DNA of 63,885 nt, filler included, from Squatina squatina (lineage: Eukaryota), in the NCBI GenBank assembly GCA_031763465.1. It is 4 parts of 3 records of this genome, joined end to end, with 100 filler letters (N's around TTAATTAATTAA, not from the genome) between each part and the next. Parts side by side here need not be neighbours in the genome. Positions count along the whole stretch, not along the records: positions 34,124 to 51,342 come from JARFOE010000162.1; 3 more parts are not named here. One strand, 5' to 3'. Shown here in pieces: positions 32,516 through 58,329 of this stretch. The position numbers and the translations under genes were made by a program. Each line of letters begins with the position of its first letter. Positions within the stretch are counted from its first letter, which is position 1. Below the pieces are notes generated by a model. It saw nothing but the letters and a program-made list of their open reading frames with translations. It was not told the origin of the DNA and did no database searches.

Positions 32516-32920
<405 letters not shown>

Positions 32921-34123: not shown

Positions 34124-34430
34124 CATTCCTTTGTCTGTTATTTTAGAAGAGGCAATAATTTATTTATTTTAAATGATTTCATGTCTTTCCTAAAATAGCA
34201 AACGAATGTGCTAACCACTCACCCACTAATAACAGCAACAGTAATTTCTAGGTTAATTTGACTAAAAACAATTAGCAGCACTCATAATTTATTATTCATC
34301 CCCTGTCAGCCCACTTAATTTGGTGTTCCAGTGTCCTTGAGAGGTTCAATCCAAGATACACCACTGGTTCATTTGACTCCACTATACTAATAACATATCA
34401 AAATAGAGCTTAAAGGTATATAAAATTTAC

Positions 34431-34665
34431 CTCTTTAGGAGAAAGTATTGAAATAAAGTCTTCATATATCATTCGTGCTTTGTCCTCAATAACGCTTTTG
34501 CTTGCTTCATTTTTGAGATCCTCACATGCTAGCCAAAAGAGCATATTTTCTTCACTGTATTCAGTTCGTAAGAATTCTCTGAAGATATTTCTGCCTGCAG
34601 GAGTTTTCAATAGCTTCTCAAAGGATTGAGCCCAAGAGCGTACTTCTTCTGCTGTTGGCTTTTCA
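34431..34665 (-). CDS. RGS19: RZ-subfamily RGS-domain exon, RGS19 by head-to-head position with OPRL1
   Basis: cacag|..EKPTAEEVRSWAQSFEKLLKTPAGRNIFREFLRTEYSEENMLFWLACEDLKNEASKSVIEDKARMIYEDFISILSPKE|gtaaat (235 nt). RGS17/19/20 family is clear; the paralog is inferred from synteny. Confidence 0.85.
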
Positions 34666-35054
34666 CTGTGAATAGCATAATTAGTGAAAACAATGTGATT
34701 GCAAACACGACAAAGGTTGCATTTAAAAACTATCTTATTGGACTAGTGTCAGATTTTATAAACATCATTATCTAATTAANNNNNNNNNNNNNNNNNNNNN
34801 NNNNNNNNNNNNNNNNNNNNNNNNNNNNNNNNNNNNNNNNNNNNNNNNNNNNNNNNNNNNNNNNNNNNNNNNNNNNNNNGATGACACGAGAGGCCCAATT
34901 TTTGCCGCTGGCCTCGCACTCGGAAATCTGGTGGGAACTAATTTTGCAGCCGTGGTACGGACCTTGCACAAAATGTGATGGGGGAAATGAGTCCGAGTCA
35001 CTTCCCCTCCAAATTCTACTCTAAACTCTCTTAATAAATAATAACTAAATCCAA

Positions 35055-38310: not shown

Positions 38311-40899
38311 GTAGATACCAGCGGCAGGAGGAACAGGAATCTGAATATGTTAATGAATCAATCTAAACTTGCATTAAATGGCTTGAATCTATTTGTAGTC
38401 CTTGGTTGGAAGCTTTGATCTATGTATCTCACTGGTTAAACTGCATTGTCAAACTGTGCCACCTGTTCCCATCAAGTTATATTGCAAGGAATTAAGTTGT
38501 GTTACTGTTGAAGATTGCTGTTAGAATACTGATGCCAGAGTAGTGGTGACTGTAACTCTGAAAAATTTTGGCCAATCTATTTCTGAAAGAATTGGTATCT
38601 GGTCCAAATACTCTGGTATTATGGAACATATAAATATCCTTAACAACTCTGTTTATTTAAAGTTATAGTGAAAATAAAGTGAAATTGAATTATCTGCTAT
38701 AAAATACAATCTACCAGATATATGTATAGAGATAACTGTTATCTGGGAATAAAAATGTGTGTGAACATCCATCATTCTGTCCCTTTATAAATGGGAGTTG
38801 AATAAAATGAACACTGAACAAGGACTTTAATACAGTGTAAGTAATTTGGCAGTCTCTGTGATAAGATCCAACCAATAAATGCTACAAGACAATTCTTAAA
38901 CGATTAAAAAAAATTCCCAATGTTATTCTCAAAGCACACTTTTATTGCAAAATGGCTTTGGCACAATTTACTGACTGAGATTGTATTTTCAACAAGCAAT
39001 ATTTTAGCAAAAGTGTTGGGGTAGAAATATAAACCCTTATTTTGTCATTGTACACATTATTGGTAATTTATGATTATGATTCTGTTGCAATGGCAGAACT
39101 TTGTCCTTTTAAAGTTCCAAGATCTAATTGTTGTAATTAAGCATATCACAGACGAACTCTTCTATAGACATTTGGCAAGGTCAATTCGCAAGTAATTCCT
39201 TCTCTGTAGATTGTCAGCTGGTTGTAAATCAATGATCAACAAAAAACTAGCAGGGAATCAATGGATTTCTTTCCCTTTGTTCTGCATCTGTATCTAAGTA
39301 CGATGGAAGTTTGATGTCTGAAGTGAAAAATAGGAATGGATTAGTTCTCATTGAGTGAAATGTTAAGTTGTGTTGAATGGAACAGTACTGAGTGTTTCCA
39401 GTGCAGAGATTCAGCAGCTGGTTGCATATGCACAACCCATGATTTCTATTCATTGGGAAAAGGCCTGACTGTGCATGCTTGATTTCCTGATATGTGAGCC
39501 GATCAGAAAGAACTCATCAGAATTCCATCAAGGTCCAGCAACACCTCAAGTTTACAATTCTCATCTTTGTTTTCAAATGCCTCCGTGGCCTCACCTCTCC
39601 CTACCTCTGTAACCTTCTCCAGTCCTACAACTCTCCGACAGCTCTGCAACTCCCAATCTTTAATCCAATCTTTCTATCCATGTCTTGAGTACACACTATA
39701 ATTATCTTCATAGGTTCAAAGATACAGCTGATTTAGATTGCACAAGCAAACAACACATGAAAGGTGAGATGGGCTAAGAGGCATTGGAGGATCAGAAATA
39801 TGAGTTAGGCTCTGCTGATGTCAGTGAAATTGACTGCAGCACTTGTCTCTAATTTTATCAATACTTTTAAGACCAAAAGGAGTACCACAATCGCATCGAT
39901 CAGCCAACANNNNNNNNNNNNNNNNNNNNNNNNNNNNNNNNNNNNNNNNNNNNNNNNNNNNNNNNNNNNNNNNNNNNNNNNNNNNNNNNNNNNNNNNNNN
40001 NNNNNNNNNTCGTGCACTGGAGGCGATGCTGGATCTAGTGGTCTCAGTCTGCCCTAGCTGAGAGGAGACTCCCCAGGTATGAAAAGTGATCCACGTTGTC
40101 CAGGGATTTGGCATGTATTTTGATGTTTGGGGGTTGGTGGTGTGCAGGCTATTCCTGAAAGCAACTTCTGGGTTTCCGCATTTAACTGCACATGTGCGGA
40201 CACCACAAGTTGCTGTCAGTTTTACACAGTAATGACGGCAATCAGTAATCAAGATTTGAGCTGAATGGTTTCGTGCGCCGGCCGTCCCCTACTGGGCTGC
40301 TGAGATATTGCATTCAGAGGACGTTGCATGCACTGCACTTGGAAAACGCCTTTTGTAAAGGTATTCGGGACTTGCATTTTTACAGATGTAGAGCGGAATT
40401 TACTATCTGGGTGCTGGGCGAGACTACACAGTTTGAAAGGGGAGGCAGCACGCTGGAATAAAAGGAAAGTAAAGGTTGGGGAGGGGACAGACTGAACGTG
40501 GCTCAGCAGTGACAGACTGCAAGTTTTACCTCCATAGTATTTCGAACGCTCGGCAGCGCTGACACTGTGATAGCTTCCCCGGGCCCCACCCGGAACTAAA
40601 AAAACGTGTCTGAGGCTTTCAATTATATAACTTGTACAGAATTTCAGCTTCATCACTCTGTTCTGGGCGGGACACCGAAGAGAATCAGCCATCAAGCTGT
40701 TTGAAATTGCGCTGAAGTCCAGTTGCTTGCCAAGGGTACAGTGTTTAAAACAGATTTCTGCATTTAAGACTAAGGCATAACTGTAATCATTTGTTCATAA
40801 TTTAAACTAACTTATTTATTTACTGTATATGTGTGTTTTCAGTGTTTTCATTGCCGTTCTGTATATTGATACTGTCTTACCCCCAGGTCAGGCTGCACC

Positions 40900-41126
40900 A
40901 TGGAAATTGACACAGCCTGCGGTTTTGGAAGCCTTAAACACTACAAATATTTTAATGACTCTGTTGATGAAAATTACACGATTCTTCTTGATCACTGGTC
41001 TGACAATGTTACCGACCTCATATTGGAACCGTCAACCACCATCAAAATGACCATCACCGTGGTCTATCTGTTTGTTTGCCTAGTGGGTCTGGTGGGCAAC
41101 TGTCTGGTAATGTACGTTATCATCAG
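40900..41126 (+). CDS. OPRL1: Nociceptin receptor first coding exon (N-terminus and TM1)
   Basis: Acceptor ccccag ends at 40886; Kozak gcaccATGg; N-glycosylation sequons NDS/NYT/NVT; TM1 ...VGNCLVMYVII(R)|gtaagg. GNCLVMYVI is NOP-like. Confidence 0.88.
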
Positions 41127-41604
41127 GTAAGGCTTGGATTTTTCATGTTATACTGTTGTATGTGCATTTCAACAACAAAANNNNNNNNNNNNNNNNNNNN
41201 NNNNNNNNNNNNNNNNNNNNNNNNNNNNNNNNNNNNNNNNNNNNNNNNNNNNNNNNNNNNNNNNNNNNNNNNNNNNNNNNAGGGTATAGTTACAGCATAA
41301 CAAGTTTACATAGGCAGTTTCCACAACAAATGTGGACATAAGAATAATAATGTGAATATAAAAATAAGAACAGAACATAGGAATGTAAAATGGGGACAGA
41401 GTAAAATCTGTGCTCCTTGGTCCAGTTACCTTACCCTTTAACTTCACTTGATCTAAAGACTATCCTAGAACTTGACTCCTCATGTGCAATGCCACAGGGA
41501 AGCAATTAGTAATACACCAATGTGCAGGATCATTGCAACAAACCTGTTTGAGAATATTCAAGTCTTAACATGTTTTAACTTGCTTTCTGTCCCTTTTGTT
41601 CCAG

Positions 41605-42125
41605 AAATTGAATGCTTTTTGGTTCATCCTCAGCCTCACAGTTACTGGAAGCCCACAATTGAAATCGCTGTGTTTCTTTTTTCCTTTGTTATTCCAGTCG
41701 CTATCATAACAGTTTGCTACACATTAATGCTTAGGCGGTTGAGAAGTGTGCGTGTGCTTTCTGGATCAAAAGAGAAGGACAGGAATTTGCGCAGAATTAC
41801 AAGAATGGTCTTAGTGGTTGTTGCAGTCTTCATCGTCTGTTGGACTCCAATCCATATTGTAGTGTTAGTGCAAGCTATCTGTAATCATGAAATCATGGNN
41901 NNNNTGCCAAGCTGGTATTTTTGTGTTGCTCTTGGATATGCCAATAGCAGCCTCAATCATGTTCTTTATGCCTTTCTGGATGAAAACTTCAAAAGGTGCT
42001 TTAAAGAATTTTGCTTTCCCTCCACTTTTAAAACAGAACTTAAGGTGTCAAACGGGATGAGAAGTATCACAAAAGGTGTTGCTTACTCATGTAAGAATAC
42101 AGATGGGACTGAAAATGTTGCATGA
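41605..42125 (+). CDS. OPRL1: Nociceptin receptor last coding exon (ECL2-TM7 and tail); the TM2-4 exon is absent, presumably in the gap at 41181-41280
   Basis: ttccag|EIEC...[22 protein letters not shown]...CWTPIHI...[10 protein letters not shown]...[26 protein letters not shown] and the tail align with human OPRL1 (VRSIAKDVALACK). 6 Ns at 41899-41904. Confidence 0.9.
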
Positions 42126-42212
42126 CTAGAAGTGGAGACTCCTTCTGCTTCTGGCCATCAGGAGAACAAAATTAACTCAAATGCGGAGCTGACTCAAATT
42201 ATAGGCCTTTGA
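42123..42212 (+). other. OPRL1: Stop-codon readthrough signal TGA-CTAG and in-frame C-terminal extension
   Basis: TGA at 42123-42125, CTAG at 42126-42129, then 28 sense codons LEVETPSASGHQENKINSNAELTQIIGL and TGA at 42210-42212. Confidence 0.8.
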
Positions 42213-45200
42213 AAATAAACACTTTTGCTGCATTTTCAAAATGAATAAGGCAGACACATTTCTAATTTCAATAAATCGAGTGCTGTTTATTTAAAATGAG
42301 CAAATCAAATTAGTAATCTCAGCGGATAATGAGTCAGAATTTGAAACATGACATGAATTACTGTAAGAAATTTAAAAAATAAACAACACAGGTAAATTCA
42401 CACAGCTGTCAGTTTTTCAGACAAGGCTAGCTTCCCACTAGAAATGTATGATGAGTTAAGCAACTCTTTAAGCTATAGTAATGCTTGTCGACACAAAAAG
42501 CAGTATTTGATTATATCAGATATACTAATGCAAATTTGATAAAGATATTATTGCATGTTAGTGAAATATAATAATCTTTTCATCATGGGGTAAATGTGAT
42601 TGTTTTACCACAAAGTTGAGAATAATATTAATGTCTGCCTTTTGTGACTGAATGTAAAGCACTTTTTGTAAGTTTCATTACTCCAGTTAGAGGCTATTTG
42701 ACTGTAAGCACAGAGCGCACTTGCAAAATATTGAATATTTTTGGAGGCATGTTACCGAGGTCAAAATAACCAAGAGGTAAGAACAAAGCAGACTTCTGCT
42801 TGTTAAAATAAGTTACTTATATAAAAATTACAAAATATACTTGTGATTGTAATAAAACCTATTGCAGGGTATAAGCTGAACTATCGCNNNNNNNNNNNNN
42901 NNNNNNNNNNNNNNNNNNNNNNNNNNNNNNNNNNNNNNNNNNNNNNNNNNNNNNNNNNNNNNNNNNNNNNNNNNNNNNNNNNNNNNNTGACCTCAACATG
43001 TGTGCTATGAAGTCACTAAAACAACAGTGGATGATGTTGTTTGTGTTTTGAGAATGGAAGATTTTACAGGTACAATGTACAGTCAAAGCAGCATCGGGGA
43101 CACTCAAGTGTACTGCTCATTTCATCCTTTGTATATGAAAGCATCAGCAAAGCCATGTCCTAATCACAAGGCCTCATCATGAACTCTCCTGTCTGAGCTG
43201 GAAGGTTTGTCAGTTTTCAGATAGATACCGAAGGGTGGTTGTCACCTCCTAGGAATGCTTTGTCCGAGGTGGAGGAAAAGCTAACCCACTGTGCCTTAGC
43301 TCACTTAAATCTGGTTACTTGTTGGTCCCTCACGGAAGACCATGGATGTCCGAGGTGGAGAAGGCTATGGTTCATTGTCTTCACCTTCTCAACTGGACGA
43401 ACATGTGTTCTAACAAGTCAAGGATATTTTAAGAAAAAAATACTTTAAAGATGTACATTTTAATCCTGTCACATTCTGGGCAAAAATGGGCATGAGCTGG
43501 AAAGGTTTTATTTTCAAATCTGTATTTAACAAATGATATAATAATTTTGACTTTAATTGATTGTAAAGTACAGGTTCAAACATTTAATACTGGTTATTAA
43601 AAGTAGGCATTTGAAAATGTTCAATTTCTTTTGCAGCTTTCTAAATATGTATTCCCATAGGGCCTCATTTCCACATCTGGCAAATACAATCAAGTGGGAA
43701 TTACACTTGGATACACAAACACAACTCTTAGTATCATTAGTAGGAACTACCATTTCCAGTTTTGATTTGATTTTAAAATCAATTTCTTTGTATTTTGTGC
43801 ACTAAAAGATTATAAATGATACAATTACTATAAATGGCTGGACTATAAGAGCTGGGTTGTACTGACTAATTTGTTTATGCTCTAGTCGGCAGGACTGAAG
43901 TAATTTCTCAGCCGTGTCCTGGAGGTAGTGACACTGTGGGGCTGGTGATGGATGATATAATGTTGTCCCACTATGAGCATGGTAGAAAAAAATCTGAAGG
44001 CTCATGTTTTAACTCGCTTGCTGACAGTTTGTGAAAAGTTAATCAGTAGTCGAGAAGGTAAGGTTCCATGAATGCCTGTATTAAATTTCTTTCTATTGAT
44101 TGATTCCCCTGTACATCCTCCTTTTGTGTTTACTTGTAATTTTCCAATCACTAAGTTAAAGCTGCTGTTGTGCCCTATGACAGGTCCTAACTCAAGTCTC
44201 ACATGAGATTCTTGAGCCACTTACTAGAGCTCTCCTGTTGCCCTCCTTGCAGTTTTTATCTTGGGAGTCCGTTCTCCTAGGTAAGCTGCAACCAAAGCTG
44301 GAGAGCCTCCTCTATCATTTATAATGGGGTAGGGGGAGGGCAGGGACACCCACACCTACCAGACATAAGTAACCCTGTTGGACGTCAGCCCAGTATTCAA
44401 AGCCAGCTTTCCACTCACCAGAGCCAAAGCCCATCCCTTCTGACTCAGAGGCAGGAATACTACCATGGAGCCTGTGGTCTCTCCCTCTAGATGTGAATAC
44501 ACTGCTGGACAGCAACCCAGTATTTAGGAAGCTTAGCCAAGTTTCTACTCACTGGGGTTGCCTGATGTGGGGCTTGAGCCTTTCACCCTCTGACTCAGGG
44601 GTAGGCATGCTACCACTAACGCAAAGGCTCATTCCACTTCTAGCATTGCAGAACTTAAAATGGTCATATGCTGTAGAAATACATTTCAGAATAGAACACA
44701 ATCACCTTAAGAGCTCTGCCTCAAAATGAATATTGTGTATTCATTATGAACACATAAAAACCCATTTAAACTATGAGGTCAATGCATTTCCCAGATTGGA
44801 TAGGACCCTCGGAAAACTAGCGAAGCAACTGTCTGTATGGATGCAATAACTATCCATTGCATTGGCACTTATATAGAAACATAGAAGATAGGAGCAGGAG
44901 TAGGCCATTCGGCCCTTCGAGCCNNNNNNNNNNNNNNNNNNNNNNNNNNNNNNNNNNNNNNNNNNNNNNNNNNNNNNNNNNNNNNNNNNNNNNNNNNNNN
45001 NNNNNNNNNNNNNNNNNNNNNNNAGTTTCTCTGTAGTTTCCGATACATCATTTAATTTGTTGTTAAGATGCCTAAATCGATCATTGGGGCTGTACTGGTG
45101 GTGGACTGGGAACTCCACTGCCACCACATGCGGTACATTAGGTACAGGGTGCGGCTCCAATTGCAATAGAGAGAGAGGATACTGGTCAGCAGGAATGGAT

Positions 45201-56824: not shown

Positions 56825-57026
56825 AATAAGATAGATACCCAGATTCAAGGCAGTGTGTGTTATATCCGAACCATTGCAGTGAGGTAAATGAGCTTACCCT
56901 TCGTTTTACACTTTGCCAGACATTCTTTCTTGGTTAAAAAGTTGTTTTCGTTTCCATTACATCCCCCGTACATAAACTCTTCGCATTTCTGTGTGAATAT
57001 GTTGAAGTAATATCTTTTGTTTGTAG

Positions 57027-57107
57027 CTTTGCAGCGCCCACTATCAGCCTTTAGTGTGCAGATTTCATGGCCGTACAGCAGCTTCTTGTGACCTGCATGA
57101 GAAAAAG
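57027..57107 (+). CDS. Candidate 81-nt symmetric exon of an unidentified gene
   Basis: tcttttgtttgtag acceptor; aag|gtatta donor; only the phase-0 frame is open: LCSAHYQPLVCRFHGRTAASCDLHEKK. Peptide not recognised. Confidence 0.35.
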
Positions 57108-58329
57108 GTATTATTGTTATTGGATTTAAGTAAATTAAATATTGATTTCAAGTGAAAGTTCCATTTGGTCATGTTTTTCACATAAGATTATACATTAATT
57201 TTTGCTTGAATTTTCCTATCTCTTGTGTCCAATTTCAGAGTTCTAAAATATCAAGAAAACCTCCCTACCACTGGAAATGTCATCTTTGTTTATTATGAGC
57301 ACTGTAAGTTAGATCTAATCTGATCCCACACAATTCTGGTGACAGATGCCTGCTATTACTGTAGTAATTTGTTTCTACTTTCTTCATTGTTGAGACACCT
57401 ACTGACTTCAAAATGGTGTTATTTATTTTCTCTATTTCCAGAATACTGTCAGTTTCCACTGGATAGAGCTTCACCCTTAAGCTGCTGAATCGACTTGAAT
57501 GGCATATGCTTAATTCCAACAAATAATGAGACGAGCATTTCTGGTTCTGGAATGTAGAAACGTAACAAGCACCAAAGCTTTTTAGCGTGTTTCATCACAA
57601 CCTGTCGTAGATACAAATCTGTGGTTTAAATTGCAAACTACAATTCTCAACAACTTCAAATCAGTTATAATATTTCAAAACAATTAAAGATGTAGTTTTT
57701 TAAAAAATTGTAAACACTTGCAAAATTCTCCTACAGTTTGAAGATGAAAGAATTTGGCCTTTCCCTTTAAGAGACTGATTTGCATTCATATTTTTATTAT
57801 AGTGGTGGTAGTATTTTGAGATCATAGAATCATACAGTACAGAAGGAGGCCATTCGGCCCATCATGCCAGTGAAAGAACTATCTAATTACACTCTCTTGC
57901 TCGTTCTCTGTTGCCCTGTAAAATTTTTTTTGTGTAATTATCCAATTCCCTTTTGAAAGTTACTCCTGAATCTGCTTCCACCTCCCTTTCAAGCAATGCC
58001 TTCCAAATCATAACAAGTCACCGTATAAAAAAAAAGGTCACCTCATCTCCCCTCTNNNNNNNNNNNNNNNNNNNNNNNNNNNNNNNNNNNNNNNNNNNNN
58101 NNNNNNNNNNNNNNNNNNNNNNNNNNNNNNNNNNNNNNNNNNNNNNNNNNNNNNNAGACCTGATTACCCATAACATTGGCAGCAATGACAACTACAAAGA
58201 ACACCCTCCATTGTGTATATTGGCACTACCACTTTAATTACCAGACTAAGGAAAGATCTATCAGCCCAAAATTAAGTATCCTTGTTGCATTTAGGCCATT
58301 AGCAGCAGTAAGATTGTATACCACAATCT

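Follow-up and report, generated by a model that had tools for sequence, protein, structure and literature searches.

The DNA analysed here, a stretch of 63,885 nucleotides (filler included) from Squatina squatina (GCA_031763465.1) and called the window below, is put together from many short pieces with 46 runs of N between them, and carries two coding exons of OPRL1, the nociceptin receptor gene (Table 1). The first exon is separated from the last by a 100-N join at 41181-41280, and a tblastn search of the window gave no match to the middle exon, which is absent from it. The last exon, with six N at 41899-41904, and the putative readthrough site at its end lie within one piece of the gap list (41281-42887). 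The 72 amino acids before its stop codon match a shark nociceptin receptor best (96%) and those of skates at 83%. A tree built on the last-exon region of 43 rows puts the window among sharks, rays and a chimaera in a chondrichthyan NOP clade with support of 99/94, and groups it with NOP (clade support 100/99) and not with KOP, MOP or DOP. Because of these protein matches and its position in the tree, we assign the open reading frame ending at 42122 to elasmobranch OPRL1, most likely that of a shark; the same matches and tree rule out OPRK1. Elsewhere in the window, lone exons of TGF-beta (32519-32920, minus strand), RGS (near 34413-34685, minus strand) and Kunitz type (56863-57147, minus strand) lie on separate short pieces. 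RGS19 is a gene that we take to adjoin OPRL1; since the window appears stitched from short pieces joined by N, its gene order, and with it synteny between the RGS exon and OPRL1, is unsafe.

Table 1. Features of the OPRL1 locus, in window coordinates.
Feature	Position	Strand	Basis
First coding exon of OPRL1	40900..41127	+	75% (tblastn) against a named nociceptin receptor of a shark, residues 1-76
Last coding exon of OPRL1 (TM5 to C-terminus)	41605..42122	+	94% over 173 aa to catshark P0128; 7tm_1; tree
His codon in place of NPxxY Pro	41958..41960	+	Protein comparison and related runs
P-site codon GCA	42120..42122	+	Favours OPRL1 readthrough in human reporters, in the parts available of PMC4132726 and PMC9841425
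Annotated stop UGA, putative recoded site	42123..42125	+	Window sequence
Candidate 3' readthrough signal CTAG-AA-GTGGAG	42126..42137	+	CTAG and TGGA invariant in 7/7 aligned opioid receptor ends
Predicted 28-codon readthrough extension LEVETPSASGHQENKINSNAELTQIIGL	42126..42209	+	28 sense codons; no indel in X3 or X11
Conserved terminal block NSNAELTQIIGL	42174..42209	+	9/12 identical to L001, E 7e-05; common across paralogues
Second stop TGA	42210..42212	+	Unchanged in X11
AATAAA, candidate polyadenylation signal	42214..42219	+	One base 3' of second stop

An earlier, sequence-only reading of this DNA had described a TGA CTAG followed by an open frame of 29 residues, counting the recoded stop, and the sequence is exactly as it stated. 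Among chondrichthyan OPRL1 proteins, 29 of 30 end at the residue homologous to the window stop, which fixes the position of the stop codon but not its context. The heptamer TGACTAG accounts for five of the 6559 stop triplets on the two strands of the window. Open frames of at least 28 codons follow 19% of 5081 arbitrary stop triplets, and frames of 28-34 codons follow 6%; the open frame by itself is therefore unremarkable, but its combination with the motif, the end of an opioid receptor reading frame and the homology of the tail is not. A further AATAAA lies at 42270 and none lies between the two stops, so that a message ending at the proximal AATAAA would carry the whole tail. We found no Rfam match, SECIS elements included, in 40000-44000, and no strong splice donor before the stop of Squatina squatina OPRL1.

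Four of 24 related runs from nine organisms (X3, X11, X13 and X23) were aligned to 41910-42440; in a search for same-species runs, none of the 24 listed contained half of the sequence words, and no RNA run containing them was on record. X3, X11 and X13 span this region in one contig at 90-95% nucleotide likeness, X23 covers 41984-42137, and no joints occur in any of the four, for which 40 of 71 substitution rows are listed. For X11 the table is complete (changes, 26/26; gap letters, 8/8): the motif and second stop are unchanged, and the tail differs at three sites without any gap. X3, for which the table lists 23/26 changes and every one of 13 gap letters, has all its gaps 3' of 42222; its three unlisted changes (a single A>C, A>G and A>T) leave the A positions of the motif not strictly cleared, and the order of the rows suggests that they lie further 3'. 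X13 (listed: 14/40 changes, 6/10 gap letters) shows no dip in depth within the tail, and X23 (one of three changes listed) ends eight bases past the motif. Motif, frame and second stop are intact, then, fully in one of the four aligned runs and nearly fully in another. Five tail sites are changed among these relatives, four of them synonymously (P about 0.03 against an expectation of 29%), and the sole replacement, of Ala by Val, occupies the variable position of the terminal block. The density of substitutions in the tail is not significantly lower than behind the second stop, at 3/84 against 14/228 in X11 (Fisher 0.57), and 3/84 against up to 18/228 in X3 (Fisher 0.21). The aligned runs have changes relative to the window in common and probably sample one shark group. 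The proposed conservation in cartilaginous fish holds up for these close relatives only, at 90-95% likeness; loss of CTAG or breaks in the frame, named beforehand as evidence against it, do not occur in X11, and X3 is nearly cleared of them.

A scan of metagenome contigs gave 19 loci from 95 stretches, six of which (L001-L006) are last exons of vertebrate opioid receptor genes and evidently represent host DNA. None of 601 stretches from viral contigs was confirmed as further receptor DNA, and one of 48 stretches from prokaryote genomes gave one distant match. One bacterial genome record (L020) has a GPCR-like stretch, 45% alike over 31 residues, which is likely host DNA. The 43-row tree identifies L001 and L002 as teleost NOP, L006 as teleost kappa, L004 and L005 as teleost delta, and L003, in which 172 of 174 residues are identical to a bird receptor, as mu; PDB matches agree with these placements.

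For comparison with bony vertebrates, a teleost-type OPRL1 tail ending NSNTELTQITAL took the place of the human tail. The last 12 residues of the shark tail share nine with the teleost NOP tail of L001, and when the first four residues are left out the two tails still align with a score of 30, against -11.8 +/- 7.6 for shuffled tails, none of 5000 of which reach 30. The middle has diverged, and the difference in length amounts to six whole codons. Between L001 and L002 the tail differs by nine synonymous changes and no replacement (chance of 9/9 about 2e-5), as compared with 39 synonymous changes and one replacement in the 170 codons upstream, and coding-type constraint on the OPRL1 tail is shown for this fish pair. 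An in-frame extension is conserved across species, then, for sharks near the window and for one teleost pair. That the terminal block is the conserved part of the tail, as the earlier reading had it, is borne out by its agreement with the teleost tail while the middle diverged. The same reading placed the origin of the extended form in the gnathostome ancestor; homology of the tail across the split between cartilaginous and bony fish agrees with this, although the date is understated, the signal probably being older. A set of teleost models (P0070, P0083, P0098, P0099, P0101, P0103, P0105-P0107, P0181 and P0182) have another C-terminus that ends in a Cys-containing motif, and several of this set carry the name nociceptin receptor; in this teleost lineage the readthrough site may be lost or lie elsewhere. 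In the protein collections, no extended OPRL1 candidate was found among proteins of 55-177 aa, none of five matches among the 50% cluster representatives spans the tail, and none of the listed members of 16 clusters is an extended isoform.

TGA-CTAG is present in all six opioid receptor loci, followed by frames of 34, 34, 28, 31, 31 and 28 codons in L001 to L006, and TGA-CTAG with a tail is present in none of the three non-opioid GPCR loci examined (of 13 non-opioid loci). All seven opioid receptor ends, the window included, have G-x-A TGA CTAG NN R TGGA in common, and in the six loci the codon before the stop is G(C/T)A, within G(C/T)A-TGA-CTAG-NN-RTGGA. At L003:1708-1803, a bird-like mu exon ends in CAG-GTA TGA CTAG with a 28-codon frame, and teleost delta exons at L004:403-501 and L005:1714-1812 have TGA-CTAGGC and a 31-codon frame. 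The mu case is one contig and the delta case two; the tails of L004 and L005 are identical, as are the next ~165 bases, so that the pair is uninformative on constraint. Pairwise similarity between paralogous tails is weak (p 0.02-0.24 in nine pairs), and the best common six-residue block across the four types was equalled by 4 and 3 of 500 shuffles. In the bony-vertebrate set, the best common block lies two to four residues from the end in 4/4 tails, its position having been left unconstrained in the search. Over the four paralogues it reads E-[LV]-T-[QV]-[IY] (kappa: LTHV) with an invariant Thr, and in delta the tail extends by two more residues. Since loci of kappa, mu and delta type have it too, the readthrough signal probably predates the OPRL1 gene of gnathostomes. 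Lamprey and hagfish receptors (P0013, P0014, P0028 and P0085) end in Pro-Ala, like those of jawed vertebrates.

The bases after CTAG are AA in the window, GC in bony-vertebrate OPRL1 and CA in L003 and L006, and the complete table of X11 lists no change to G, C or T at the AA of the window. GC at this point, which the shark window lacks, is a trait of OPRL1 and not a requirement of the class, OPRK1 being without it. In the available text of one report (PMC5868278), UGA-CUAG was enough to give readthrough in every human gene tested. In human reporters, as far as the parts available of these reports go, OPRL1 gave the highest readthrough, about 31% in the fused reporter and about 17% later, a GCA P-site codon mattered, and about 12 nt of 3' sequence sufficed (PMC4132726, PMC9841425, PMC5868278). 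The accessible part of a mutational scan describes lower levels of readthrough and gene-specific effects beyond CUAG, with positions after CUAG changing readthrough in a gene-dependent manner (bioRxiv 10.64898/2026.07.14.738498). Because such positions alter readthrough, we counted the AA of the window, as opposed to the GC of bony vertebrates, against readthrough.

The mu locus bears on the history of this signal in a further way. Among fish and amphibian mu proteins, 19 of 21 end in QV (cluster representatives only), an end also found in one owl and one python mu model and in none of 65 mammal-type rows; a bat mu form continues as VRSF. Amniote mu isoforms part ways directly after NHQ, the point at which L003 reads CAG-GTA TGA CTAG, and the readthrough signal thus overlaps the amniote exon-3 junction; the other paralogues have no GT there because the codon is GCA. 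From the available text of PMC8534031, OPRM1 exon 4 is present from chicken onward. We infer from these sequences that the mu splice donor arose inside an old readthrough signal and that mammals then lost the stop. Some mammalian mu isoform tails with LAV or LAI (P0224-P0227, P0230 and P0244), which look like the exon 7/O type, follow NHQ in the same register as the frame at L003:1717-1734, and one of them reads LAVRMS against LAVEMS in L003, a post hoc match that may be chance.

Taken together, we consider it very probable that the site is the shark orthologue of OPRL1 programmed readthrough, with signal and tail derived from an ancestral opioid receptor gene. Most ribosomes would terminate at the UGA at 42123. 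Termination would be slowed by the P-site codon GCA together with the CUAG-NN-GUGGA context. In a minority of events, by extension from the human reporters, a near-cognate tRNA would decode UGA and add 29 residues to the cytoplasmic tail. In the tail, the first codons would be held constant as an RNA signal and the middle would be an unconstrained linker, with protein-level selection acting on a short docking motif made up of the last 9-12 residues. Its partner would most likely be a scaffold or sorting protein, presumably altering receptor location or recycling. Signal and tail would have been inherited from one ancestral gene, an opioid receptor gene that predates the four types. A wider form of this proposal, to which we lean with less assurance, is that readthrough is ancestral to the whole opioid receptor family: the gene before duplication would have had G(C/T)A-UGA-CUAG-NN-RUGGA and a tail of ~28 residues with a terminal docking motif, non-mammalian mu and delta would still make the tail, the amniote mu exon-3 donor would have formed from CAG-GUA UGA, and the tail splice variants would have arisen atop the older readthrough switch and replaced it in mammals.

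The inherited motif and tail could instead be a relic, persisting through slowly evolving shark 3' UTRs or as an RNA element while the extended protein has no role. The lack of a significant difference in substitution density between the tail and the downstream UTR agrees with this, as do the small number of informative sites (five, in close relatives) and the departure of positions +8/+9 from bony-vertebrate OPRL1. We nevertheless judge it unlikely: the terminal residues match the teleost tail across a diverged middle with a length difference of whole codons, the gaps listed for X3 and X11 all lie 3' of the second stop, and Rfam gives no match around the site. It is also quite unlikely that this animal's OPRL1 copy is inactive and its readthrough site without effect, an idea raised by the His codon at 41958-41960. 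The Pro of NPxxY, a class A mark of function and not of descent, is present in 306/306 other receptor proteins compared, and NHxxY occurs in the window assembly only. However, X3, X11 and X13 have C at 41959 (a Pro codon), the frame is intact with 94% identity to other sharks, and the contig is gappy, with the six N 55 bases upstream of the His codon, which is either an error or a private allele.

A route to the tail by splicing, by A-to-I editing of UGA or by selenocysteine, in place of near-cognate decoding, is highly unlikely. A predicted hairpin begins at the motif and can set the A of UGA opposite C, which speaks for such a route, yet its folding is unexceptional (z -0.47 and -1.26), one of its pairs is broken by a change at 42146 in a relative, and the paralogues fold differently. 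Splicing is disfavoured by the lack of joints and of a strong donor, editing by the lack of A>G at 42125 in the complete table of X11 (that X11 is RNA being a guess), and selenocysteine by the lack of a SECIS or other Rfam match. Predicted hairpins in L001, L002, L003, L005 and L006 start about 15 nt past the stop, as compared with the motif itself in the shark, and the hairpins mostly do not exceed shuffles. A stimulatory hairpin was rejected: L003 alone reached significance, with z -3.0 in one fold, but lost it in a second (z 0.5).

What the terminal block does is a separate question. Class I PDZ ligands have Ser or Thr at -2 and a hydrophobic last residue. The shark tail ends IIGL, with a hydrophobic Leu at the end and Ile at -2, and the suggestion of a PDZ-type ligand fails its simplest test in the shark. 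The best-conserved residues, moreover, lie upstream of the last three. L001, L003, L005 and L006 do have Ser or Thr at -2, and the ends of 4/4 bony-vertebrate tails fit [ST]-x-[LFM], as do those of 187/4180 random open frames (4.5%); a looser, class II-like pattern that fits the Ile-Gly-Leu of the shark occurs in 549/4180 (13%). PDZ binding by the predicted tail is a tentative idea to which we give somewhat less than even weight, and a role in phosphorylation or sorting is just as likely, the invariant Thr being further upstream. In this alternative, which we also hold at a little below even, readthrough is real and the terminal block would act in phosphorylation, in arrestin binding or as an endocytic sorting motif. 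Its invariant Thr, its place 2-4 residues short of the end in the paralogues, the further residues of the delta tail and the lack of Ser/Thr at -2 in the shark would fit such a motif, and phosphorylation sites were proposed in the available text of Loughran 2014 (PMC4132726). Against it stand the [ST]-x-[LFM] ends of the bony-vertebrate tails, which are homologous and so not four independent draws, and the terminal Leu kept in the shark.

The accessible text of Loughran 2014 (PMC4132726) follows the tails of OPRL1 and OPRK1 back to the ancestor of bony fish, with an inferred origin before the duplication of the two genes, and that of PMC8534031 has the four opioid receptor genes arise via genome doubling; because of both, a shark copy was to be expected. 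The dating to the gnathostome ancestor is accordingly less new than had been supposed, since an origin before the OPRL1/OPRK1 split is already in print (PMC4132726, as far as its available text goes). Readthrough was unreported for mu and delta (Piltonen 2020), and a literature search whose scope stopped short of most subscription papers, the Loughran 2014 supplements and one RefSeq recoding paper found no report of it for shark OPRL1 or for mu or delta. The window adds a cartilaginous-fish branch to a known case of readthrough, a modest gain, and indicates that the "absolutely conserved" GC after CUAG is dispensable. The comparison of paralogues weighs more, as it suggests a family-wide readthrough tail, partly unreported, in which each type of opioid receptor would have a conserved tail isoform missing from annotation. 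It also names residues that selection would have kept, a Thr-centred block near the end of the tail, which offers a direct test for function of the human NOP and kappa extensions. If the proposal is true, fish, amphibian and bird mu and delta models would express a second receptor form that nobody clones, and an origin would be at hand for the splice hub of the mu receptor.

Among known systems, AQP4 (AQP4ex) likewise has UGA-CUAG and an extension of about 28 residues on the cytoplasmic tail of a membrane protein, and its readthrough has already been traced to cartilaginous fishes (PMC4132726, in the text available). It differs in being an unrelated protein whose extended form has been seen by antibody, whereas shark OPRL1 is known from sequence alone. 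The C-terminal splice variants of OPRM1 (PMC8534031) are alike in varying an opioid receptor tail at the same residue, but are made by splicing to downstream exons and not by recoding, readthrough being unmentioned in the available part of that report. A further likeness is to OPRL1 and OPRK1 readthrough as described in the accessible text of PMC4132726: the gene is the same, with the same GCA-UGA-CUAG, the 28-residue tail lies within the stated range of 28-34, and conservation is likewise concentrated at the C-terminus, with no conserved RNA structure.
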